Positions 11,653 to 61,621 of a stretch of 64,000 nucleotides of DNA are shown piece after piece (positions within the stretch are counted from its first letter, which is position 1; each line of letters begins with the position of its first letter). The stretch is taken from assembly GCA_964397565.1 (NCBI GenBank), contig CAYNJC010000025.1:84-64083 (forward strand), written 5' to 3'. A program made the translations under genes and the position numbers. The notes under the pieces are model-generated. The model was given only the letters and a program-made list of their open reading frames with translations, had not been told where the DNA came from and did not search any database. The DNA is from an uncultured bacterium. Its GTDB lineage: Bacteria; Auribacterota; UBA3054; JAPLST01.

Positions 11653-12232
11653 ATACCTTGACAAATCAGAACTGTCCGGATAGGTTGCCTTCGTCATAAC
11701 CTAAATCCCGCTTGCATCTCTCCCGCCGCTGGCGCATGCGCGTCAACTTAAGCGGCTGCAAGCCGCATCTACAACAGATGTTCCTGAAATTCCGCTATAG
11801 GGGAAAATGCGAACCTGACGTGGCCAAATCTGTTGGGGGTCCTGCGCGTGCGTGGCCGGAGGCTGAGGTAGGGCGGTCAGGCCCTGACCGCCGTTGCTGC
11901 ATGCGCGCGCACGCCGGTGCTACCATGGCGCAACAACGACCGCGGCGGTCAAGGGCCTGACCGCCCTACCTGTCTGCGCGCTCTACGCCGGCGGCTCCCG
12001 TTCTTATAGCGGAATTTCAGGACAGATGTTCTTGTTACGTTGACGCGCATGCGCCGCTGGCGGGACTGGCGAAGCCAGCCACCCGACCAGGGAGACCATA
12101 CAGCGCCTGCGCAAGCGCTCCGTCCCCCTGGCGGCGCTTGCGCCGTACCGCCAACGGCGGTAGGGTTGGGGGATTTTTTGCGATTTTGCCTTGGTGGTCA
12201 AATGTAAAGAAATGTTAGAGACACTGCACTAG
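11633..12232. mobile_element. 600-bp non-coding nested-palindrome element (MITE-like)
   Basis: Four sets of inverted repeats. (1) Termini: ctaagtgtagtgtctc at 11633-11648 against gagacactgcactag at 12218-12232. (2) cccgccgctggcgcatgcgcgtcaac at 11722-11747 against its partner at 12039-12064. (3) cctgaaattccgctata near 11783-11799 against tatagcggaatttcagg near 12005-12021. (4) gtagggcggtcagg at 11868-11881 against cctgaccgccctac at 11956-11969. No credible ORF inside. Confidence 0.6.
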
Positions 12233-53248: not shown

Positions 53249-53662
53249 TTATCGTCGTTTCTTCACCGTGCTGCGTGGCTGGCGGCGTGGATGATACTCG
53301 CCCGGACCATCGGCGGCAATAGACGCGGCTGGCACGCCGACAGGATACACCGACACACCTTCCCGACGCGCGACCATGAGGAGCGGCTGCCACGCTTGCT
53401 CCGCATATTGCCGCACGCCAACGCCAATGGGTTCGATGCGCGTGTCCACGCGCCAGACCATGTGCCACAGCGTGTCCAACGCAGCTTCACGGTCCTTGCC
53501 GTCGAACGCAGGCGAAACCACCACCAGATCAATATCGCTTTCCGGCCGCTGGCATCCGCGCGCACACGAACCGAAGATGACGCCCCGGTCAACCACAATG
53601 CCGGCTTCCGCGACTTTCGCCAGATACTTCCGCACCACGCTCACAATTGCATCATCAACCAT
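53249..53662 (-). CDS. Nucleotidyltransferase-domain protein (MNT-type antitoxin candidate)
   Basis: VIFGSCARGCQRPESDIDLVVVS matches the GSxxRG ... DxD minimal nucleotidyltransferase motif. Confidence 0.8.
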   Translation of the reverse strand: MVDDAIVSVVRKYLAKVAEAGIVVDRGVIFGSCARGCQRPESDIDLVVVSPAFDGKDREAALDTLWHMVWRVDTRIEPIGVGVRQYAEQAWQPLLMVARREGVSVYPVGVPAASIAADGPGEYHPRRQPRSTVKKRR

Positions 53663-54036
53663 CTGAAAACCTCCTTCGCCCTCTTCACGCGCGCCTGTGC
53701 CGAACGAATTGGCACCGGTTGATTCTTTTCGTCAGGATAACGTCCCGCAATATTGAAGCGACCGGTTTCGCCCAGAACGTCTCGCATCCCGGCACTAATC
53801 GTCAGTCCGCTCAGTTCAGCCAAGCGGGTGAGCGAATGGATCTTGGGCGCAACGTCCTTTGTGGCGCGCGTCACATGCGCCTTGAGGACTTTTTCAAGCG
53901 CCAGATGGATGAAGAACAAGCCCTGACGCCCGTGCCCGCTGCGCACCAGCACTTCGCCGCTCGCCAAATCCTCAACGGCGTTGGCGCGCCAGTACCCGAC
54001 CTGCCGCTCAATGTCTTGTGCGCTTATCATATACAT
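53641..54036 (-). CDS. HEPN-domain protein (toxin candidate)
   Basis: HEPN-like helices (FFIHLALEKVLKAHV ... NIAGRYPDE). Overlaps the downstream MNT gene by 22 nt. Confidence 0.7.
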   Translation of the reverse strand: MYMISAQDIERQVGYWRANAVEDLASGEVLVRSGHGRQGLFFIHLALEKVLKAHVTRATKDVAPKIHSLTRLAELSGLTISAGMRDVLGETGRFNIAGRYPDEKNQPVPIRSAQARVKRAKEVFRWLMMQL

Positions 54037-54747: not shown

Positions 54748-55938
54748 TCAACGACGCACACAACGGAAGCCAATACCTTCGTCCGCGCCGTCCGGCGTGT
54801 AGTAGCTGCGGGACGCCACGCGGCAGCGGTTCGAGCTGTAGGCCCAACCGCCGCCGCGCAGCACGCGGTCCGAGCCAGAAGAAGGTCCGCATGTGTCATT
54901 TTGCGTCGCACCCGTATTACTGTACCAACTTGCATCATACCGGTCCCAACACCATTCCCAGACATTGCCGGCCATGTCGTATAAGCCATAGCCATTCGGC
55001 GCGAAATAGCCGACCGGACTGGTGTAGGGCATTGGTTCGTTGGTAAACGCCGGATTGTAGCCGTTCGGACCTAAGTCGTATGCGTAAGCTGTATTACCAT
55101 AATAATTCGCGCGCGAATTCGTGATCGCATTCGCATCGCTCCACGGGAAGCGCATGCCAACCGCGCCGCCGCGCGCCGCTTTCTCCCATTCGGCCTCGGT
55201 CGGCAGGCGATAGCCGTTGGCACTCCAGTTCACCCATTCGTTCGACAGATTTGCTGACCCGCCGCGGTACACCAGGGTCTGGGCCGCATTGGTATAATAG
55301 CATGGCGTCAGGCCTTCTTTCTCACTGCGCGCATTGCACCACTTGACACAGTTGTACCAGTTCACCATCTGCACTGGGTGATTCGGCACTTTGCCAGCGC
55401 CGGGATTTGTAAACGCGTAGCCGTTGTTCGTGGCCCAGATATACACATCCTGCCACTGCTGCGACGTCACCTCGTGTTTGTCCATGAAAAAGGCGCTGAG
55501 GGTCACGGTATGATTCGGTTGTGCAGACGTTCCGTCGTCGGTGAAGTTCGTGCCCATCTGAAACGGGCCGGCCGGGATCAGCGCCATATCATCCATGGCC
55601 GTCACGCGCACGCGGGCCGTGACACCGCTGGCCTCCGGCAGATCGCCCGCCGCAAACCAGACGACCTGCTTATTCGTGCCGGTCGTGACGGTCGCGCCAA
55701 CCGCGCCGCTGAAATTCGTGCAGGCCAATGAATACGTTGCGCCGGCGTTGGTGGAGACATTGATTGCAACCGTATGGATACCACCGCTCGGATTCAGCAG
55801 ATCATAGGCAATGTCCACAATCGCCGCGCCTATCCGTTGGGCGGCCGTGACATTCGTGACCGTCACCGGCCCGGCTACGGCGGTGAACGCGCCCAGCGCA
55901 AGGGACAGAATGATGGCGGTGATTGGTGTTGATTTCAT
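54748..55938 (-). CDS. Secreted FGE-sulfatase (SUMF1/EgtB/PvdO-type) domain protein
   Basis: Signal peptide and an Ig-like N-terminal module, followed by MALIPAGPFQMG ... GYRLPTEAEWEKAARGG ... GNVWEWCWD ... RVLRGGGW. Confidence 0.88.
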   Translation of the reverse strand: MKSTPITAIILSLALGAFTAVAGPVTVTNVTAAQRIGAAIVDIAYDLLNPSGGIHTVAINVSTNAGATYSLACTNFSGAVGATVTTGTNKQVVWFAAGDLPEASGVTARVRVTAMDDMALIPAGPFQMGTNFTDDGTSAQPNHTVTLSAFFMDKHEVTSQQWQDVYIWATNNGYAFTNPGAGKVPNHPVQMVNWYNCVKWCNARSEKEGLTPCYYTNAAQTLVYRGGSANLSNEWVNWSANGYRLPTEAEWEKAARGGAVGMRFPWSDANAITNSRANYYGNTAYAYDLGPNGYNPAFTNEPMPYTSPVGYFAPNGYGLYDMAGNVWEWCWDRYDASWYSNTGATQNDTCGPSSGSDRVLRGGGWAYSSNRCRVASRSYYTPDGADEGIGFRCVRR

Positions 55939-56028: not shown

Positions 56029-56202
56029 TCACTTGCGCCGCAGCAACAGCCAGAGCGGCAGCGCGGCGGCCAGAATCAGCGCCGGTTCCGGCACGGTCGT
56101 GTCCAGCGTAAAATCCGGCGATTCGGCCTGGCCCCAATCGGCCAGACAGGGCAAGGTCCAGATTACCAGAATCGCCAGCAGAATCATTAGTTTTGTGTGC
56201 AT
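56029..56202 (-). CDS. Minimal PEP-CTERM protein (57 aa)
   Basis: GGAG 7 nt upstream of the ATG. MHTKLMILLAILVIWTLPCLA signal peptide, a 15-aa middle part (DWGQAESPDFTLDTT), then VPEP-ALILAAALPLWLLL-RRK. Confidence 0.65.
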   Translation of the reverse strand: MHTKLMILLAILVIWTLPCLADWGQAESPDFTLDTTVPEPALILAAALPLWLLLRRK

Positions 56203-56292
56203 GGTTTTTCTCCCCAATAAATGTTGCTGTACGCAGGTAAAATAGCATAGCACAAACGCCGACAAAAGGCAAAGGCCGGCGCAGGCCGGTCG

Positions 56293-57522
56293 TCACTGCG
56301 GCGTGTCCGCCAGCCAGTGGTGGAGCGTATGCTTGCTGCGCGCGCGCGGCGTCAGTGTCGTGGCGCCGCGCCATAAGTTGAAGACCGTGCGCCCATAGCG
56401 TGCCAGCAACGTCATCAGGCGAACAGGATAGTAGAGGTACAGCACGGGCGAGGTCGCACGTACGCCATAGAGCCGCGCGAGGACTGCCTTGGGTACGCAG
56501 ACGTTGTGCACGAACAGCGAGATTTTCTTGTGCCACACGGCATCGTGCCACGCCACCACATTGGGCGACAGCGCCGCGTCCGCGGTCACATCCGTGAGGA
56601 TTTGTGTCCGGGCGCAGAACAGCACGGGGTCTGGCAAAGAATCTGGGCGCAGCTCGCGCAGAACCTGCGCAGGCACGGCGGCGCCAACCATGTCGTGCGC
56701 CAGTTGCAGCGCCAGAAAGACACCGCGCGTCCAGCGCCACGCCCGCGCGCGCGCCACCACATCCGGCCACGCCAGGCTCTCGTGCTGCCATCGTATGATC
56801 TGCGCAATATCACAGAACGGGCGCAAACCAAACTCGAATTCGTGCTGATAAGCCGCATGGAAACAGGCATAGAGCAGGAGATCCTCGGCGCACAAGCCCA
56901 GGACGCTGTTATCGCCGATGCGCACCGGCACGGCACGCTGCCACAGGTCACCGGGTTCAATCGAATAGACGTGCCGCGGCGCAGTGATGTTCCAGTGCAG
57001 CTCGATCGTGGTGCGGCCTTGCTGCGCGAAGGGCGGCAGATGCAAGTTGCCGTCGAAGAACGCCTGGTCGAGCACATACGGGAACTGCGCCGCGTAGCCG
57101 TGGCGCTCCAGAACGTGCGCGACGCGCGCCAGGTTGCCGCGTGGCACCAGCAGATCAATATCCACCATTTGCCGCGCGCCGAGGTCGTCATAGACGCCAA
57201 AGGCAAGATGTGCGCCTTTGAGCAGCACGACCGGCTGATGGTCGGCGTGGAGCGCGGCCGCGATGTCGTGCAGCTCATTGCGGATGCGAAGATTGCGCAC
57301 CGCGTTTGATGCGTAGAACGTCTGCAACGTGTGCAGGGCGTCACGGGCCGGCGGCCCCGTGATGCCGAGCGCCTTGATGCGCTGGTACACAAGGCCGACC
57401 ACTTGCTGCGCCAGCGCGTCGTGCAGCAGCGCCTGCCACTCGTTTGCTTGCAGGGCTGCCAGGTGCGCGGCCGTCGCACGCTCATTGCCCGGACGCAGGC
57501 AGTCGAGCAGCAGCTCGGTCAT
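56293..57522 (-). CDS. Nucleotidyltransferase family protein (PF14907/NTP_transf_5-like)
   Basis: MVDIDLLVPRG motif, size and context. The ATG at 57522 forms an ATGA overlap with the upstream gene. Confidence 0.55.
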   Translation of the reverse strand: MTELLLDCLRPGNERATAAHLAALQANEWQALLHDALAQQVVGLVYQRIKALGITGPPARDALHTLQTFYASNAVRNLRIRNELHDIAAALHADHQPVVLLKGAHLAFGVYDDLGARQMVDIDLLVPRGNLARVAHVLERHGYAAQFPYVLDQAFFDGNLHLPPFAQQGRTTIELHWNITAPRHVYSIEPGDLWQRAVPVRIGDNSVLGLCAEDLLLYACFHAAYQHEFEFGLRPFCDIAQIIRWQHESLAWPDVVARARAWRWTRGVFLALQLAHDMVGAAVPAQVLRELRPDSLPDPVLFCARTQILTDVTADAALSPNVVAWHDAVWHKKISLFVHNVCVPKAVLARLYGVRATSPVLYLYYPVRLMTLLARYGRTVFNLWRGATTLTPRARSKHTLHHWLADTPQ

Positions 57523-58490
57523 GACAAGCACTTCCGCATGGGGATGCGCCGGCGGCCGTAGTGCTCGACGTCGGCGGCCAGCTCTGCTGCGAGTGCCGCG
57601 ATGGTCACGCGTTCGAAGCCAAGTTTCTCATAGAGGGCGCGGGCGGGACAATTGTCCTCGAAGACGGTCAAGAGCAGCTCCTGGGCGCCGGCAGCCGTGG
57701 CTTGGTCAATCACGTGGCGGACCAATTCTGCGCCAATGCCCATGCCGCGATAGCGTGTTCTGACGGTCAGACTGTAGAGCCAATGGCCGACCCGCGGGGT
57801 ATCGCCGGCGGGGTGCCGCATCAGCCGGACGAAGCCCAGCAACTCTGTGCCGCGCGTGGCGACGTAGTTGGTCAGGCCTGGCGGAGCAGTCGGCGCGGCG
57901 GCGGGCAGGTCACGCGCGGCGGACAGATCGAGCCATGCGGCCACGCGAACAAGCTCCGCGGGCGTGGCTTCTCGGATGACGAAGGTGGGGCGGCAGCGAT
58001 GCAGCAGTGCGCGCAATAATGGGCTGCGCTGCAGGCGCCCGAGCGCGCGGCCGCTGGCGTGCCGCAGCCATCTCGTCAGCGCGCACAGCCACGCGATCAG
58101 CGGTGCACAGCATGTGCAGACCAGGCCGGCGAACCACCAAGCGCCGCGGTCGAGTGTGCGGCTGCGCCCGGCGTGGGTGGCGTGCGTCACCGTGCCGAGC
58201 AGGTCGCGCGGCGCGAGCGGCCCCGCGCGGTGAGTCTGCGCGTCACCGCGCAGCCAGACGCCCTCGCCACGCACACGCACCACGCGATGGACCACGTACC
58301 GTGCGGGCGCGGACTCGGCCAGCACAATGTCGCCCCGCGCCGGCGCAGCACACTGGGGCGCCAGCTCGATGACATCACCGTCGTGAATGATCGGCCACAT
58401 GCTGTTGCCGTTGACCGTCATGCGCACGCATTGCCCGCGTGCCAGCGCCGCGCGGATGACCGGCATCATGGCATGGCCGGGGATCGTCAT
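57519..58490 (-). CDS. S24/S26-type (signal-peptidase-like) peptidase - TM - GNAT acetyltransferase fusion
   Basis: GNSMWP nucleophile motif, HRVVRV where bacterial SPase I has KR, then LRGD. A hydrophobic segment WWFAGLVCTCCAPLIAWLCAL. GNAT motif A YRGMGIGAELVRHVIDQA ... ALYEKLGFE. ATGA overlap with the kinase gene. Confidence 0.6.
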   Translation of the reverse strand: MTIPGHAMMPVIRAALARGQCVRMTVNGNSMWPIIHDGDVIELAPQCAAPARGDIVLAESAPARYVVHRVVRVRGEGVWLRGDAQTHRAGPLAPRDLLGTVTHATHAGRSRTLDRGAWWFAGLVCTCCAPLIAWLCALTRWLRHASGRALGRLQRSPLLRALLHRCRPTFVIREATPAELVRVAAWLDLSAARDLPAAAPTAPPGLTNYVATRGTELLGFVRLMRHPAGDTPRVGHWLYSLTVRTRYRGMGIGAELVRHVIDQATAAGAQELLLTVFEDNCPARALYEKLGFERVTIAALAAELAADVEHYGRRRIPMRKCLS

Positions 58491-59389
58491 AGCGCCGCAC
58501 GCACGAGCGGAATGACGGCCTTCTCCGCGCGGCAGCGCAGGCGGAAGACGGGCGTGCGCGCCAAAATCGTGTTGAGATTGGTCAGCGCGCGTTGCAGCAG
58601 CGGCGCATCCCAATACGGCAGAAATGTGCGCGCCAGCAGCAGCGGCGCGGCCGCCGTCGGTGCGAGTTGTTCGATCCGGTTCTCCGGCGCTTGTTCCAGC
58701 AGAATGATGGCACGCAGTGGCGCGGCATGATTGCGGGCAATATTGGCCGTGCCACCCCAGGGCGTGCCGTAGCACATGGCGGTGTGTGCGTTGACGCGTA
58801 CGGCGATGCGGTCGTCGTTCATGGCGATCACGCCCGGCTCCTGGGTCCACAGGCACGCGTGTGTGCTCTTGCCGGCGCCGGAATGCCCGACGAAGACAAG
58901 GCCCTGGCCGTGGTCGTCAATGCCGGACGCGTGAAAAACCAGACCATCGGTGAAGAGCACGGCGGTGCGCAGCAGCAGTTCGCCCGCGCCGATGTTAAGG
59001 ACGCTCTGCCACGTCGTGCCGTGCGGTCGCCCGGCCGGGACGCTGCGCTGTTCGGTCAGCGTCAGATCGTTCCACGCGGCATTGGCGCGCAGGACGCTGT
59101 GCATCTGCGCCGGCTGCTTGTCATCATGATACGTAATCGCGGCGTAGAACTCGGCGCCGTCGCGATACATGCGCCAGATCGAGCCCGGGTCGTACACCAA
59201 GGTGCCGCGCGGCTCGGGCGTGTCCGCGCTTTCCTCCCAGTGCAGCACGACGCGCGCCAGCGGCTGTGGCGTCAGGCCGAAGAATGGGCCGAGGCGTTGT
59301 TCGATCCCCAATTCGGCGGCGGACAGCGGGCTGTGCAGCTCGATCACAATGTCGGCGATCGAAATCGGTATGTTATGTTGGTTGGCCAT
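58487..59389 (-). CDS. HPr kinase/phosphorylase-related kinase
   Basis: P-loop LVFVGHSGAGKSTHACLW followed by NDD, as in the HprK C-terminal domain. Start is ATG at 59389 or TTG at 59413, and both overlap the 3' end of the rSAM gene. Confidence 0.7.
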   Translation of the reverse strand: MANQHNIPISIADIVIELHSPLSAAELGIEQRLGPFFGLTPQPLARVVLHWEESADTPEPRGTLVYDPGSIWRMYRDGAEFYAAITYHDDKQPAQMHSVLRANAAWNDLTLTEQRSVPAGRPHGTTWQSVLNIGAGELLLRTAVLFTDGLVFHASGIDDHGQGLVFVGHSGAGKSTHACLWTQEPGVIAMNDDRIAVRVNAHTAMCYGTPWGGTANIARNHAAPLRAIILLEQAPENRIEQLAPTAAAPLLLARTFLPYWDAPLLQRALTNLNTILARTPVFRLRCRAEKAVIPLVRAAL

Positions 59390-60443
59390 GCTGTTCCTTG
59401 CGCGCCCAGGCAACTTCGCACAGATACGGCACCGGTTCGTTCAACGTATGCGTCTCGAGCAACGACCAAGCCGGGCAGCGCGGGCAGTAGACGCGCGCGC
59501 CGCAGTTCCGGCAGGCATCAGCCAGCGGCGGTGCCGTGTCAACATAGCGCTGCGTCTGTTCCCATGCCGCGCGAAAGCCAACCTCCAGCGGGCGCGCGGC
59601 CGGCAGCGGCAAGTCCATGCAGACGTTCATCTCCCCGCGCGGATTGATGACAAACGAAGCCGCGCCAGCCTGACAGTGGAAATTGCGATCATGGGCCGGC
59701 GCGACTGCGTGCCGCGCCGTTTCAGTCCACCCTCTGGCCGAGATTTGGTCGGTCGCTTCGAGTGCGACACATGCGGACGGTGACAGGCGGCAGTGCTCCA
59801 CCTCGGAACACGCGCCATCGCGGCGCTGGGACAGCAGCCAGCCGCCCGAGAACGGCACACCCCAGTTGCGCGCCATCTGCCGCATTGCATCCAGTTCGCC
59901 CACGTTTTGCCGCGTGACCGTCGTCTTGAGCCCGAGCGGCACACGCCGCCGCACGAGCGCCTCAATCCCGGCGCAGCAGCGCGCGTAACTGCCGGCGACA
60001 CCGGTGATCGCCTCGTAGGTCGCCGTAGTGGCGCCGTAGAGCGTGATCTCCGTCCGGCTCGGCGGCGCTTCCGCCAGGCGTTGCGCCAGCGCCTCGCTGA
60101 CCAACGTCCCATTGCTGAACAGCGTCAGCAGCAGACCCATTCTGGTCAGCGGCGTGTAAATCTCAAAAAAATCGGGCCGCAGGAGAACTTCGCCGCCCGT
60201 CAGCAGCAGAAAGAGCATGCCCTCGTCAACGGCCGCGCGCGCCAGTGTCAGCCATGCCGCCGCCGTCAGCTCCTCCGCGCGCACCGTGGCGTCGCCGCCA
60301 GATTGGCTGATGTAGCACATGCGGCAGGCCAAGTTGCAGCGCGCCGTGAGTTCAAAGGTGCCATTGACGGGCTGGCGGCGCGCGGCGGCGCGCGCGTGCA
60401 GTTCACGCACCAGATCGCCATACTCGCACGGCAGGCTGCTCAT
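59373..60443 (-). CDS. Radical SAM/SPASM domain peptide-modifying enzyme
   Basis: CNLACRMC (CX3CX2C) near the N-terminus. C-terminal SPASM cysteines (CQAG ... NVC ... CRNCGARVYCPRC). ATGA overlap with the PqqD-like gene. Confidence 0.85.
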   Translation of the reverse strand: MSSLPCEYGDLVRELHARAAARRQPVNGTFELTARCNLACRMCYISQSGGDATVRAEELTAAAWLTLARAAVDEGMLFLLLTGGEVLLRPDFFEIYTPLTRMGLLLTLFSNGTLVSEALAQRLAEAPPSRTEITLYGATTATYEAITGVAGSYARCCAGIEALVRRRVPLGLKTTVTRQNVGELDAMRQMARNWGVPFSGGWLLSQRRDGACSEVEHCRLSPSACVALEATDQISARGWTETARHAVAPAHDRNFHCQAGAASFVINPRGEMNVCMDLPLPAARPLEVGFRAAWEQTQRYVDTAPPLADACRNCGARVYCPRCPAWSLLETHTLNEPVPYLCEVAWARKEQHGQPT

Positions 60444-60706
60444 CCGTCAACCATGCCCAGCGGCGCGATCTCATCGAGAAAGGTTTGCACATCGGCGCGG
60501 GCGCGCACCGGCTCGACGGCAAACCGTTCGACCACGATGGCTGTCAGTTCATCCAGCGTGCGCTCTTCTGCCAGCAGCTCCCACACACAGCAGGCCGTGT
60601 CGTTTAGGATCACCAAGCCATTCATCTCCATAACCTGGGCGCCCAGCGGCGTCAGCAGAGCGACGCCTCCAACATTCTGTAGCATGAATTTCTCACTGCG
60701 TTTCAT
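60440..60706 (-). CDS. PqqD-family protein (RiPP recognition element candidate)
   Basis: 88 aa. NDTACCVWELLAEERTLDELTAIVVERFAVEPVRARADVQTFLDEI is a typical PqqD-like pattern. The ATG at 60706 lies just downstream of the attenuator. Confidence 0.8.
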   Translation of the reverse strand: MKRSEKFMLQNVGGVALLTPLGAQVMEMNGLVILNDTACCVWELLAEERTLDELTAIVVERFAVEPVRARADVQTFLDEIAPLGMVDG

Positions 60707-60751
60707 CTTCTTGCCTTGGTTGGAACCCGACGAAACATCAGTCCGGGCCAC

Positions 60752-60794
60752 AAATAAAAAAGCTGGCCTGCATCCTTTTCACGGTGCGGCCAGC
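60752..60794 (-). terminator. Intrinsic terminator/attenuator between the precursor and maturase genes
   Basis: Minus-strand GCTGGCCGCA ... TGCAGGCCAGC stem (one bulge) followed by TTTTTTATTT. Confidence 0.6.
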
Positions 60795-60923
60795 AGCTTC
60801 TTGATGAAACCTTTTCCGGCGAATGTTACCACGCCTCGCCACTGTCCCGTGTACCAATATCGTGCTCCCTTCGCCGATTGGTACGTGCCACGAGCAGCGG
60901 ACTACGCGGTAGACAAACGCCGC

Positions 60924-61088
60924 TTACGAGCCACTCGGCCCGTTTGAGCATGTCCTCGGGTCGGTCTTCAAACAGCCCAGCAATCTCTCCTCCAGCTTAA
61001 GCGGGACAAAGGTTGCCTTGGGCGCCTCATAGGGCTGCTTGTGCGATGCCTGCGCCGCAGTGGTCACGGTGATGTGCTGCTTTTCCAT
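60924..61088 (-). CDS. Candidate precursor peptide (54 aa), not in the ORF track
   Basis: GGAGAG-ttagc-ATG. Sequence MEKQHITVTTAAQASHKQPYEAPKATFVPLKLEERLLGCLKTDPRTCSNGPSGS*. Lies directly upstream of PqqD and the rSAM gene on the same strand, with a consensus promoter at 61146-61174. Confidence 0.7.
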   Translation of the reverse strand: MEKQHITVTTAAQASHKQPYEAPKATFVPLKLEERLLGCLKTDPRTCSNGPSGS

Positions 61089-61145
61089 GCTAACTCTCCA
61101 TACCGTTGAATAACCAGCAATTTTCTTGTAAAAATACTTTTGTTA

Positions 61146-61174
61146 AGTATACCAAGAACGGCCACTTTTGTCAA
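61146..61174 (-). promoter_or_regulatory. Sigma70-type promoter TTGACA-N17-TATACT (peptide operon)
   Basis: On the minus strand: ttgaca (61174-61169), exact 17-nt spacer, tatact (61151-61146). About 55 nt of 5' UTR before the peptide ATG. Confidence 0.65.
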
Positions 61175-61266: not shown

Positions 61267-61621
61267 GGGGGCGCACTGGGTTCGACTGGAGTCGATGCTG
61301 TACCGTGGCGTGCCGCGGACGTCCGTTGGCCGCGTTACCAATCGGGCACAAACAACAAACGCGAACGAAGAACTCGCACTTGCTGCGTAATTTAACGTAG
61401 CCGCTCGGTCGTCGTGCTGCCTGTCAGGGCGACATGAGCGACGATTACAGGCTGGCGCGGATGATCGGCTGGGAGCCATCCGCGTGAGACACTTCCCGGC
61501 TCGACCGGCGGTGGCCTGCTGATGGGCAACCAATGGTTTAAACTCAATCCACCAGCTACGCGCGTAGAAGCGGTACGGATAGATGTTCAGGACGCGGGTT
61601 CAACTCCCGCCGCCTCCACCA
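61267..61621 (+). ncRNA. ssrA: Transfer-messenger RNA
   Basis: The 5' GGGGGCG pairs with the 3' CGCCUCC (G3-U wobble) followed by ACCA. T-arm GGACGCGGGTTCAACTCCCGCC. Tag reading frame at 61346-61390: gca caa aca aca aac gcg aac gaa gaa ctc gca ctt gct gcg taa, encoding AQTTNANEELALAA*. Confidence 0.92.

Follow-up and report, generated by a model that had tools for sequence, protein, structure and literature searches.

Linear polyphosphorylated peptide (LPP) clusters of Bacillota encode LppA, LppK, LppB, LppS, LppD, and LppN, and their core set, published in May 2026, comprises a discrete RiPP recognition element (RRE), an HprK-like kinase, a signal-peptidase-I-like leader peptidase, and an NTP transferase (Popov et al., Nat Commun 2026, PMC13381572). 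LppK, LppS, and LppB account for phosphorylation and for RRE-assisted leader cleavage by a Ser/His/Asp signal-peptidase-I-like peptidase. Specifically, LppK modifies core residue Ser3, a phosphosite that adjoins the cleavage site, the leader is cut inefficiently unless the peptide is phosphorylated, and LppN activity was undetectable in heterologous expression; the clusters have no radical-SAM (rSAM) enzyme, a term absent from the report (PMC13381572). In lasso-peptide clusters of the paeninodin and pseudomycoidin type, the kinases PadeK and PsmK phosphorylate the Ser at the precursor's C-terminus; a hexose on the phosphate requires PsmN (PMC6993621).

Here we describe, in a 64,000-nucleotide stretch of DNA from an uncultured bacterium of the Auribacterota (the window), a six-gene operon whose product is very probably a small modified peptide. 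We put at roughly 0.7 the probability that it is a RiPP biosynthetic operon, of a family without a described function, working by the mechanism proposed below. Each enzymatic step of that mechanism is one that we infer.

As judged by published descriptions of the Lpp, Pade, and Psm proteins (PDB sequence searches returned nothing close), the locus most closely recalls LPP clusters. Both have a discrete PqqD-type RRE predicted to read a Y-x-x-P leader, an HprK-like kinase, a signal-peptidase-I-like peptidase with Ser, His, and Asp residues (S30/H66/D81 here, S29/H68/D93 in LppS), and an uncharacterised NTP transferase. Polysaccharide loci lie nearby in both (here a Wzm/Wzt transporter, ~4 kb from the operon), and relatives such as L082 have an MsbA-like exporter. 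The differences are extensive: the rSAM enzyme, which LPP clusters lack, is the most conserved component of the present family, and its translation is coupled to that of the RRE; the leader continues after Y-x-x-P as FVPLKLEERL rather than VLxHQxIxFETxxS; the predicted phosphosite is the C-terminal Ser rather than Ser3; the cores are ~16–20 aa long and contain Cys, whereas the LPP core has 45 aa; the family occurs in at least 10 other phyla and in archaea, whereas LPP is reported from Bacillota only; and the present operon has a GNAT fusion and, among its six genes (56293–61174), no exporter gene.

Paeninodin and pseudomycoidin clusters likewise pair an HprK-like kinase with a Ser-ending precursor and have an accessory, uncharacterised nucleotidyltransferase (NTase) acting after phosphorylation (PMC6993621), and there too a Y/W-x-x-P leader motif is read by a discrete RRE. 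The present operon differs in having neither a macrolactam synthetase nor a B2 protease, in having a serine peptidase as predicted leader remover, and in having an rSAM/SPASM protein as primary modification enzyme. Sactipeptide and ranthipeptide maturases (SkfB, AlbA, CteB, and PapB) share with the locus a full seven-Cys SPASM domain, RRE-dependent recognition, and short Cys-containing cores. Their RRE, however, is an N-terminal domain and not a separate protein, identity to any of them is at most 20%, and the present cores have just two Cys and lack any conserved acceptor residue; we know of no phosphorylation and NTase module from these classes. The SynChlorMet (SCM) cassette of NCBIfam/TIGRFAMs, defined bioinformatically only, comprises ScmC, a PqqD homologue, ScmE, and ScmF. 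As in the present family, an HprK-like ScmC-family protein (PF27840) adjoins a PqqD homologue and rSAM/SPASM enzymes, and the phyletic spread is patchy, including Chlorobium, syntrophs, and methanogen-related archaea. However, SCM has two rSAM enzymes where the present operon has one, the present family has in addition a peptidase, NTase, and GNAT, and a precursor family is identifiable; for SCM, to our knowledge and per its TIGRFAMs description, no precursor has been identified.

Operon structure and family distribution

The original prediction of six tightly coupled minus-strand genes downstream of a consensus promoter is confirmed, and the operon is real: it spans the promoter (from 61174) to the NTase stop (56293), with all six ORFs in place (Table 1). 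The promoter is indeed near-consensus, and both its −35 and −10 boxes are kept in the relative L008 (84% identical). The ATGA overlaps of PqqD with rSAM (60443–60440), kinase with peptidase (58490–58487), and peptidase with NTase (57522–57519) can all be read from the sequence. The rSAM and kinase genes, noted as overlapping by at least 17 nt, overlap by exactly 17 nt (rSAM stop 59373), the kinase start being corrected to the ATG at 59389. The NTase start had been placed at a GTG at 57531; the ATG at 57522, which overlaps the peptidase stop, is the most likely start.

Table 1. Features of the operon, in window coordinates
Feature	Position	Strand	Basis
Sigma-70-type promoter, TTGACA / 17 nt / TG-TATACT	61146..61174	−	11/12 consensus matches plus TG extension
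Precursor gene, 54 aa, MEKQHITVTTAAQASHKQPYEAPKATFVPLKLEERLLGCLKTDPRTCSNGPSGS	60924..61088	−	ORF; homologous small ORFs upstream of PqqD/rSAM in many loci
Hairpin GCUGGCC … GGCCAGC, then UUUUUUAUUU	60752..60797	−	Between precursor and PqqD genes
Discrete PqqD-like RRE, 88 aa	60440..60706	−	PF05402, E 6.7e-13
Radical-SAM/SPASM peptide maturase, 356 aa	59373..60443	−	Radical_SAM PF04055, E 4e-16
HPr-kinase-like P-loop protein (Pfam ScmC family), 300 aa	58487..59389	−	Precomputed Pfam PF27840
Peptidase-GNAT fusion, 323 aa	57519..58490	−	Peptidase_S24 E 8e-8, Acetyltransf_1 E 1e-17
PF14907 (NTP_transf_5) nucleotidyltransferase, 409 aa	56293..57522	−	Pfam E 5.5e-63
Terminator-like hairpin, weak	56276..56289	−	Pattern scan, directly 3′ of NTase stop

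Nucleotide homology to L008 extends over exactly 61176–56291, with the −35 box and the NTase stop at its two ends, and the flanks are unrelated; these sharp ends indicate that the gene module is discrete. The limits of this homology, together with conservation of the small ORF's protein sequence across phyla, place the operon beyond chance. The hairpin that follows the NTase gene is weak evidence of its end, because terminator-like sites are no commoner in the region than in shuffled sequence. Within the operon, the 231-nt spacer from precursor to PqqD has a folding z of −4.1, with the upstream hairpin of Table 1 inside the minimum-energy structure and its stem and U-run kept in L008. This hairpin is probably a leaky terminator or attenuator, which would keep precursor mRNA in excess. 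Of a suggested link to exosortase loci, there remains a tail resembling PEP-CTERM that visual inspection picked out in the next ORF; no model confirms the tail.

The trio of precursor, RRE, and rSAM occurs in more than 100 loci of many phyla. A genome scan gave 61 loci, in Gammaproteobacteria, Desulfobacterota, Chloroflexota, Planctomycetota, Acidobacteriota, and Armatimonadota, as well as in Chlorobium, Nitrospirota, WOR-3, and archaea, and a metagenome scan gave 440 relatives. Co-occurrence was counted over the 44 related loci with enough flank: the PqqD-like RRE gene is present in 40, S24 peptidase in 25, kinase in 24, NTase in 11 (never without the kinase), ABC exporter in 7, and GNAT in 2, the GNAT fusion being restricted across these loci to the present operon, L008, and L011. 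Precursor, discrete PqqD-type RRE, and rSAM/SPASM enzyme form a constant core. The kinase and the signal-peptidase-I-like protease, which nearly always occur together, form an optional module, and NTase, GNAT, and ABC exporter are sometimes added.

Precursor, recognition element, and radical-SAM enzyme

The precursor ATG at 61088 has a GGAG 8 nt 5′ of it. The peptide matches no Pfam or NCBIfam model and comprises a leader, with Y-x-x-P followed by FVPLKLEERL, and a core of the form C-x-K-T…C…G-S. Precursors of the family have in common the Y-x-x-P…FVPLKLEERL leader and two Cys, and the distance from the Tyr to the first Cys is exactly 19 residues in 39 of 48 distinct precursors. Sequence after the leader is hypervariable, and several loci hold 2–3 paralogous precursors; hypervariable, multi-copy precursors are usual for RiPP natural products. 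The best NCBIfam matches of the RRE are lasso-peptide PqqD chaperones (31 bits versus a cut-off of 70). By analogy with lasso and LPP RREs, the first step would in all likelihood be binding of the leader Y-x-x-P by the RRE, which would present the peptide to its partner enzymes.

In the rSAM enzyme, the CX3CX2C motif (C36/C40/C43) and the seven-Cys SPASM motif (C257, C275, C311, C314, C320, C323, and C342) are invariant in 24 homologues. These motifs and full-length alignment to MftC-type models bear out the proposed rSAM/SPASM assignment, although the Pfam SPASM model did not fire. The enzyme has more than 1,700 database relatives, the top 120 at least 66% identical, and falls below every NCBIfam cut-off. 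The structures nearest its AF2 model (pLDDT 70) are SkfB, PqqE, SuiB, and anSME, with SkfB the top PDB match both by sequence and by Foldseek and anSME giving the best TM-scores (0.66/0.65). The reactions of its structural neighbours differ: thioether formation, C–C crosslinking, Cys oxidation, and epimerisation.

As a second step, the rSAM enzyme can be predicted with good confidence to modify the core in some way. The likeliest product, which we propose tentatively, would be sactionine- or ranthionine-type thioether crosslinks on the two near-invariant Cys. We consider it unlikely that the product is instead an LPP-type phosphopeptide in which the rSAM enzyme epimerises, forms a C–C or C–N crosslink with the conserved Lys or Thr, or oxidises Cys in the manner of anSME, the two Cys then being a disulfide or metal ligands. 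The structural neighbours include EpeE, which is an epimerase, SuiB, which crosslinks Lys and Trp, and anSME; no acceptor residue for a thioether is conserved across the precursor cores; and C-x-K-T is kept in kinase-linked precursors, all of which suit such chemistry. However, the conserved Lys tracks the kinase and not the rSAM enzyme, the Cys pair is the sole core feature common to all rSAM-containing loci, kinase present or absent, its first Cys being set a constant number of residues from the leader motif, and the enzyme that tops both PDB searches, SkfB, forms thioethers.

Kinase, peptidase, and nucleotidyltransferase

The HPr-kinase-like protein weakly matches the NCBIfam models HprK_rel_B, ScmC, and HprK_rel_A. 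Its Walker A (GHSGAGKST) and N-D-D-R motifs show little or no variation, and its AF2 model (pLDDT 90) matched HprK/P catalytic domains and PEP carboxykinase at probability 1.0; we predict that it is a peptide Ser kinase. A terminal Ser is present in 27/31 distinct precursors with a kinase versus 2/17 without (Fisher p = 4e-7), and C-x(0–2)-K in 26/31 versus 2/17 (p = 1e-6), phylogeny not being formally corrected for in either comparison. Four of the 31 kinase-linked precursors lack the terminal Ser, two of which look truncated, and the kinase-less loci L028 and L095 have it. Mapped on an rSAM tree, the kinase has been gained or lost at least 8 times, and the terminal Ser tracks it. In a distant rSAM tier (29–42% identity), the kinase gene still adjoins the rSAM gene, and the adjacent Y/W-x-x-P precursor has a terminal Ser in 20 of 27 loci. 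The third step, by analogy with PadeK and PsmK, would thus probably be phosphorylation, perhaps repeated, of the C-terminal Ser side chain.

LppK acts at core Ser3 and not at the C-terminus, so site choice in the kinase family is not fixed. The ScmC-like protein could, like LppK, phosphorylate a different residue close to the cleavage site, could activate the C-terminal Ser for elimination and a crosslink with the conserved Lys, or could serve the peptidase as a non-catalytic ATPase or scaffold. The near-constant pairing of kinase and peptidase is consistent with such roles, as are the dependence of LPP cleavage on a phosphosite beside the cleavage site (PMC13381572), the covariation of the Lys motif with the kinase, as strong as that of the terminal Ser, and scores far under the curated HprK-related cut-offs. 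We nevertheless judge these roles improbable: besides the terminal-Ser counts in both tiers, Ser is conserved at no other core position, the kinase motifs and HprK/P fold are retained, and lasso-peptide kinases provide a precedent for C-terminal Ser phosphorylation (PMC6993621).

With C-terminal Ser phosphorylation as the preferred third step, the PF14907 NTase may, in a fourth, attach a further group to the Ser phosphate, as the PsmN-dependent hexose would suggest. The peptidase fusion comprises an S24/S26 signal-peptidase-I-like domain (residues 1 to ~105, containing Ser30, His66, and Asp81), a hydrophobic helix (~118–140, mean hydropathy 2.1), and a GNAT domain (~165–323), and its G-x-S-M-x-P, H-R, and G-D motifs are kept in 17 homologues. 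Its assignment as S26-type fits the conserved Ser/His/Asp motifs, which mark signal peptidases of the archaeal type (S26B), whereas the Pfam name is S24. By analogy with LppS and LppB, this membrane-tethered peptidase would quite probably, in the fifth step and aided by the RRE, cut off the leader, with cleavage predicted near EERLL-x-C. In a sixth step, which is rather doubtful, the fused GNAT might acetylate the new N-terminus or the conserved Lys.

Relation to known families

Curated NCBIfam cut-offs were applied to all operon proteins and none was reached, which excludes the PQQ, mycofactocin, SCM cassette, and HprK-related A and B systems. In particular, the rSAM enzyme scored 68 against a cut-off of 381 for PqqE, 81 against 265 for MftC, and 81.6 and 78 against 400 each for ScmE and ScmF; the PqqD-like protein scored 19 against 46 for PQQ-type PqqD; and the kinase scored 24.6 against 125 for ScmC and 16.7 and 35.3 bits against 200 for HprK_rel_A (TIGR04352) and HprK_rel_B (TIGR04355). 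Both of the latter models exist, the first as named in the original prediction, but the kinase is a member of neither, and the matches of the PqqD protein at E ≤ 0.01 did not include the HPr-rel-A PqqD model. The prediction of a RiPP-like operon had set two tests beforehand, one on whether the maturase was a bona fide known one and one on conservation of the gene set with a small upstream ORF. It survives both: scores for PqqE, PqqD, MftC, ScmE, and ScmF are all far under the cut-offs, and gene set and ORF are conserved in dozens of phylogenetically scattered loci.

A peptide-derived redox cofactor such as PQQ or mycofactocin, instead of a peptide natural product, is very improbable. The order of precursor, PqqD-like, and rSAM/SPASM genes is, as had been pointed out, that of mftA-mftB-mftC, and the MftC model covers rSAM residues 24–338, nearly the full length. 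Against a cofactor stand the MftC, PqqE, and PqqD scores, a precursor with neither C-terminal Gly-Val-Tyr nor Glu-x3-Tyr, the hypervariable, multi-copy cores, the absence of mftD, mftE, mftF, pqqB, or pqqC tailoring genes downstream, and the ABC exporters of some relatives. An incomplete or degenerate paeninodin-type lasso-peptide cluster would account for the leader Y-x-x-P, the RRE matches, and the kinase, NTase, and C-terminal Ser (the kinase–NTase pairing, PsmK/PadeK with PsmN, being known from lasso clusters, as predicted; PMC6993621), but has a very low probability, as the ORFs of 56293–61174, all accounted for, include no macrolactam synthetase or B2 cysteine protease, in agreement with the original prediction, the family core is the rSAM enzyme and not a cyclase, and the cores lack a conserved Asp/Glu ring acceptor at position 7–9.

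The RiPP operon that we favour belongs to a family that is widespread and whose function is undescribed in the literature. The original prediction knew of no characterised pathway in which an rSAM/SPASM enzyme is combined with such a tailoring set; the set itself matches that described for LPP in May 2026 (PMC13381572). What is new relative to LPP is that the set for phosphorylation, leader cutting, and nucleotidyl transfer is joined to a radical-SAM enzyme.

Operon organization and encoded proteins

The operon comprises six co-directional ORFs encoding, in order, a 54-aa precursor, a PqqD-like RiPP recognition element (RRE), a radical SAM enzyme with a SPASM domain (rSAM), an HprK-like kinase, an S24/S26 peptidase-GNAT fusion, and a PF14907 nucleotidyltransferase (NTase). 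The closest relative, locus L008 in another genome, is 84% identical at the nucleotide level from exactly 61176 to 56291 and has unrelated flanks, indicating that the coordinates of the original prediction mark a real, discrete module. The three ATGA junctions claimed for this module, and the claimed rSAM/kinase overlap of at least 17 nt, were all confirmed, the kinase ATG and the rSAM stop lying 17 nt apart. The precursor and PqqD genes are separated by a 215-nt spacer with an unusually stable fold (z = -4.1), and we infer that the hairpin in this spacer acts as a leaky terminator, leaving an excess of precursor mRNA.

Features of the operon and its surroundings (window coordinates unless a locus is named)
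Feature	Coordinates	Strand	Remarks
Operon	61174-56293	-	six co-directional ORFs
Promoter	61174-61146	-	TTGACA, 17 nt, TG-TATACT; 11/12 match; both boxes conserved in L008
Precursor gene	61088-60924	-	GGAG 8 nt 5′ of ATG
Hairpin, then UUUUUUAUUU	60797-60752	-	precursor-PqqD spacer; hairpin conserved in L008
PqqD/rSAM junction	60443-60440	-	ATGA overlap
rSAM/kinase junction	59389 (kinase ATG), 59373 (rSAM stop)	-	overlapping genes
Kinase/peptidase junction	58490-58487	-	ATGA overlap
Peptidase/NTase junction	57522-57519	-	ATGA overlap
tmRNA (ssrA)	61267-61621	+	tag ANEELALAA; 93 nt from operon -35 box, divergent
57-aa ORF	56029-56202	-	next downstream of operon
FGE-sulfatase/GldK-like gene	54748-55938	-	best NCBIfam match GldK/PorK, 131 bits, under cut-off
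HEPN and minimal nucleotidyltransferase pair	53641-54036 and adjacent gene (L001 16408-17195)	-	toxin-antitoxin type; beyond FGE-sulfatase gene
MITE-like element, ~230 bp	11781-12020		TIRs CTGAAATTCCGCTATA … TATAGCGGAATTTCAG; internal palindrome

The PqqD-like protein (88 aa) matches PF05402 (E = 7e-13) and comes closest in NCBIfam to lasso-peptide PqqD chaperones, under their cut-offs. The rSAM (356 aa) matches PF04055 and contains a CX3CX2C motif (C36/C40/C43) and the SPASM pattern C257-x12-G-x4-C275 … C311-x2-C314-x5-C320-x2-C323 … C342; the cluster Cys and the seven C-terminal SPASM Cys are invariant across 24 homologues. The rSAM is a peptide-type SPASM enzyme. Its AF2 model is of moderate confidence (pLDDT 70), and the closest PDB folds (SkfB, PqqE, SuiB, BlsE, and anSME) span several chemistries, so the structure does not decide the reaction.

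The kinase-like protein (300 aa) has the precomputed Pfam call PF27840 "ScmC", as do all 120 of its homologues listed. AF2 modelled the protein with confidence (pLDDT 90), and Foldseek matched this model to HprK/P (1kkl, 1jb1, and 3tqf) and PEPCK (1yvy) at a probability of 1.0 and a target-normalised TM of ~0.5. In particular, the protein has a P-loop catalytic domain of the HprK/P-PEPCK type, with a Walker A motif (GHSGAGKST) and a later acidic motif (N-D-D-R) that are invariant or nearly so; we take the N-D-D-R to correspond to the acidic A-D-D-R of HprK/P. In the pseudomycoidin lasso-peptide kinase PsmK, the D-D pair is essential (PMC6993621). Sequence searches of the PDB with the RRE and the kinase returned nothing usable and did not recover the structures of LppB, the RRE of the linear polyphosphorylated peptide (LPP) clusters of Bacillota.

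The peptidase-GNAT fusion (323 aa) matches Peptidase_S24 (E = 8e-8) and Acetyltransf_1 (E = 1e-17). Across 17 homologues, the peptidase retains the motifs G-x-S-M-x-P, H-R, and G-D, which point to an archaeal- or SipW-type triad (Ser30/His66/Asp81). The fusion has no N-terminal signal or anchor sequence, and beyond its peptidase domain lies a hydrophobic helix (~118-140); on sequence grounds, the protease domain is predicted to be cytoplasmic and membrane-tethered. The NTase (409 aa) matches PF14907 (E = 5.5e-63).

Genomic islands usually integrate at the 3′ end of ssrA, whereas the operon lies on its 5′ side; the tmRNA was the only hit of an Rfam scan. In L008, a 94%-identical copy of the MITE-like element (2198-2393) lies upstream of the homologous operon, ~70 bp away, the operon flanks being otherwise unrelated between the window and L008. 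Immediately downstream of the operon, the 57-aa ORF has its own ribosome-binding site and encodes a signal peptide followed by a mature part that is very short; its tail (VPEP…hydrophobic…RRK) resembles a PEP-CTERM sorting signal, a reading for which there was no Pfam or NCBIfam match. This ORF is not conserved beside the operon in L008 and was therefore excluded from the system. The FGE-sulfatase gene is curious beside an rSAM with a fold resembling the anaerobic sulfatase-maturing enzyme, and a similar gene lies near the cassette of L095 (10332-11159, minus strand). We rejected it as a functional partner because it falls outside the conserved module and recurs at that one other locus only; its presence near the operon is probably coincidence. 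A Wzm/Wzt polysaccharide exporter is also encoded downstream, together with the FGE-sulfatase gene and the HEPN/nucleotidyltransferase pair. In the WOR-3 locus L006, the cassette is flanked by similar HepT/MNT and ParE pairs.

Precursors and their covariation with the kinase

In most loci, BLAST and motif scans identified a small ORF adjoining the PqqD or rSAM gene. The 54-aa precursor itself had only 11 relatives in the protein database, because small ORFs are rarely called; precursors were collected by ORF and motif scans of the retrieved loci. The leader is strikingly conserved, (K/R)-Q-P-Y-E-P-P-K-A-T-F-V-P-L-K-L-E-E-R-L-(L/M)-x-C, and includes [Y/W]-x-x-P-x-[L/V/I/F/A], the motif bound by discrete lasso and LPP RREs (PMC13381572). 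Exactly 19 residues lead from the Tyr to the first Cys in 39 of 48 distinct precursors, two Cys are present in 42 of the 48, and the sequence is hypervariable past the first Cys. At several loci (L011, L026, L029, and L036), the precursor has two or three paralogues. A comparison of the window with L008 shows mainly synonymous codon differences in the leader, and substitutions and an in-frame 3-nt indel in the core. The conserved leader, variable core, paralogues, and codon changes are typical of RiPP natural products, not of cofactor precursors. The RiPP-like reading of the original prediction was essentially right, and the operon is real, uncharacterised but placeable.

The window precursor terminates in …NGPSGS, and its relatives are mostly Ser-terminated. 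The terminal Ser tracks the kinase: it is present in 27 of 31 precursors with a linked kinase versus 2 of 17 precursors without one at loci with enough flank (Fisher p = 4e-7, kinship ignored). The motif C-x(0-2)-K at the first Cys behaves similarly (26 of 31 versus 2 of 17; Fisher p = 1e-6, kinship ignored). Four kinase-linked precursors lack the terminal Ser, and two of them (L019 and L035) look truncated. Parsimony on a neighbour-joining rSAM tree gives at least eight changes of kinase state, and the terminal Ser follows them, suggesting that the association is not a single inherited event. Specifically, L011 and L082, each with kinase and Ser, have as sisters L012 and L022, each with neither; and L005 lacks both features, which its sisters, the window and L008, possess. 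The covariation of precursor and enzyme yields a concrete, directly testable prediction: phosphorylation of the C-terminal Ser.

Family spread and gene content

Database searches with the rSAM recovered more than 1,700 relatives, and the 120 top clusters share at least 66% identity with it. Without exception, the homologues listed have the annotation "hypothetical protein" or the generic "radical SAM protein". A scan of species-representative genomes with the rSAM yielded 61 loci, from Competibacter, Methylococcaceae, Lamprocystis purpurea DSM 4197, and Chromatiaceae; Desulfomonilaceae, Syntrophaceae, Desulfocapsa, Chloroflexota, Pirellulales, Acidobacteriota, and Nitrospirota; and Chthonomonas and other Armatimonadota, Chlorobium, Ignavibacteriaceae, WOR-3, and archaea. 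A metagenome scan yielded 440 relatives, 80 of which were retrieved. The host belongs to a freshwater-type MAG lineage, and its closest relative is a Lac Pavin MAG. Kinase homologues also occur in cable bacteria, and the kinase profile matched 431, 7,052, and 11,694 clusters (50% identity) at E <= 1e-30, 1e-10, and 1e-3, respectively.

Gene content was counted in 44 loci having an rSAM identity of at least 45% and at least 4 kb downstream. PqqD is present in 40 loci; the S24 peptidase in 25; the kinase in 24, nearly always together with the peptidase; the NTase in 11, only where the kinase is present; an MsbA-like ABC exporter in 7 (e.g., L082, L040, and L095); and the GNAT fusion in 2 (L008 and L011), in addition to the window. 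In L082, genes for precursor, PqqD, rSAM, kinase, peptidase, NTase, and exporter are consecutive. This pattern indicates that the family is modular, with a core of precursor, RRE, and rSAM and an optional phosphorylation/processing module.

In a Pirellulales MAG (L019, 6743-8920), PqqD, rSAM, and kinase read as a single 725-aa ORF, and database proteins (P0096 and P0193) are PqqD-rSAM (458 aa) and rSAM-kinase (496 aa) fusions; these are either natural fusions supporting functional coupling or long-read frameshift errors at overlapping junctions. In a Rhodospirillales MAG (L005, JADJQT010000008.1), the core lies amid integrase, IS91, DDE transposase, and conjugative-transfer genes (TrbL and VirB4), with an IS directly after the rSAM gene, at the position otherwise occupied by the kinase. 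These surroundings suggest that the cassette moves on mobile elements.

Loci of a distant tier (L044-L068 and L120-L148), with rSAMs 29-42% identical to that of the window, have an adjacent kinase and often the peptidase and NTase too. Taxa include Marinacidobacterales, Vicinamibacteria, Oscillospiraceae, Peptococcaceae, and Omnitrophota. The gene order is rSAM, precursor, kinase, and the precursors follow the pattern …Y-x-K-P-E-…-E-E-S-L-A-A-G-C-K-T-…-C-…-C-F-x-I-G-S (for example, L046 8116-8295 and L121 3239-3403), with a terminal Ser in 20 of the 27 loci where the precursor is identifiable by eye. Ten distant-tier proteins were compared with NCBIfam, and none exceeded a curated cut-off.

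Relation to known systems and proposed mechanism

The operon has in common with LPP clusters four of their five core functions and also the Y-x-x-P logic: an SpI-like Ser/His/Asp peptidase, an RRE that is a separate protein, a kinase resembling HprK, and an NTP transferase are adjacent here, matched by function. However, membership in LPP fails on leader consensus, exporter, taxonomic range, and the class-defining rSAM. Specifically, only Y-x-x-P is common to the LPP leader YxxPxVLxHQxIxFETxxS and the leader here, which continues K-A-T-F-V-P-L-K-L-E-E-R-L-L. The LPP core cluster includes an MsbA-like exporter, whereas the operon has none; an exporter query against the 64-kb window matched only the ATPase domain of a Wzt-type ABC gene. 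LPP products are linear, with phosphorylation as the primary modification and no other class-defining enzyme, whereas the operon has an RRE-coupled rSAM/SPASM that is its most conserved gene. Radical SAM is not mentioned in the LPP paper (Popov et al. 2026, PMC13381572).

Paeninodin-type lasso clusters have the kinase, the NTase, and the terminal Ser in common with the operon, and a Ser-terminated precursor is paired with an HprK-like kinase both in the window and for the 27 of 31 kinase-linked precursors. Neither the macrolactam synthetase (C) nor the B2 leader protease is in the operon, bearing out, for the operon ORFs, the earlier statement that lasso cyclase and B2 protease are missing. 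With sactipeptides and ranthipeptides, the operon shares an rSAM with a seven-Cys SPASM domain and core Cys, of which 42 of the 48 precursors have two. The SynChlorMet (SCM) cassette, known from bioinformatics only, has two rSAMs, not the single one found here, which scores 81.6 bits for ScmE and 78 bits for ScmF against cut-offs of 400; the kinase scores 24.6 bits against 125 for the ScmC equivalog (TIGR04249). The kinase matches to ScmC and to HprK-related kinases A and B (TIGR04352, 16.7 bits; TIGR04355, 35.3 bits; cut-off 200) are weak and partial, those to kinases A and B lying around the P-loop only. The rSAM aligns over nearly its full length with the mycofactocin MftC equivalog (TIGR03962), but at 81.3 bits versus a cut-off of 265, and the precursor terminus is not Gly-Val-Tyr. 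PQQ synthesis is dismissed by PqqE (TIGR02109, 67.9 versus 381 bits), PqqD (TIGR03859, 18.8 versus 46 bits), and a precursor lacking Glu-x3-Tyr. The rSAM is also far under the NCBIfam cut-offs for AlbA and SkfB. Overall, none of the six operon proteins passes a curated NCBIfam cut-off that would file it under PQQ, mycofactocin, SCM, GeoRSP, or HprK-related A/B, or mark it as a bona fide PqqE/PqqD, MftC, or other curated maturase, which leaves the original prediction standing on this point.

Literature searches found no paper combining HprK with SPASM or ScmC with radical SAM, and searches for PF14907 and for radical SAM with signal peptidase and kinase gave no description of the operon's combination. 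The family is an rSAM RiPP joined with a phosphorylation and SpI module, for which we found no description in the searched literature.

Precedents for the individual steps come from lasso and LPP enzymes. The kinases PadeK (paeninodin) and PsmK phosphorylate the C-terminal Ser side chain of lasso precursors, repeatedly, prior to cyclisation, and PsmN, an uncharacterised NTase, is required for one or two hexoses on that phosphate (PMC6993621). LppK polyphosphorylates a Ser; the SpI-like LppS (S29/H68/D93) cuts the leader only with the RRE LppB presenting it; and leader removal works poorly on the unphosphorylated precursor (PMC13381572). In the mechanism proposed here, the RRE would bind leader Y20-E-A-P23, the RRE-coupled rSAM would act on the Cys39/Cys47 core, the kinase would phosphorylate Ser54, and the NTase would elaborate the Ser54 phosphate. 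The peptidase would cut near E-E-R-L-L-G-C, speculatively after ~position +15 if the LPP spacing from Tyr holds, and the fused GNAT may cap the new N-terminus or Lys41. Among several candidate chemistries, thioether formation would be the most economical role for the rSAM, since of all core features only the Cys pair tracks the rSAM itself; the Lys tracks the kinase.

On a reading that we regard as unlikely, at roughly one chance in eight, the operon would be the first example of a new RiPP class of very wide distribution (many bacterial phyla, some archaea, and the distant tier) that combines an rSAM-crosslinked Cys core with C-terminal Ser phosphorylation and possibly glycosylation or nucleotidylation. 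If true, it would provide a first function for the ScmC/HprK-like family (which at E <= 1e-10 numbers at least 7,000 clusters at 50% identity) and for the orphan SCM-type cassettes as well. As part of this reading, the kinase's strict and joint covariation with the C-terminal Ser and with a Lys located two residues past the first Cys hints that the phospho-Ser might serve as an activated intermediate, undergoing elimination and capture by the Lys in a lysinoalanine-like link. If so, the macrocycle would be closed in a way that is not known among rSAM RiPPs. At 4.9 kb, the operon is a compact, self-contained unit, making it a practical target for heterologous expression.

To our knowledge, peptide phosphorylation is rare in natural products and has so far been tied to lasso peptides, to cyanobactins, and, in Bacillota, to the LPP peptides. 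Here, the same module (kinase, NTase, RRE, and a protease resembling signal peptidase) is attached to a radical-SAM maturase, in a family that extends across environmental bacteria and archaea. ScmC-type cassettes, orphans since they were first catalogued, gain a defined precursor family, and RRE-guided leader removal by a signal-peptidase-like enzyme, as predicted here, would extend past Bacillota.
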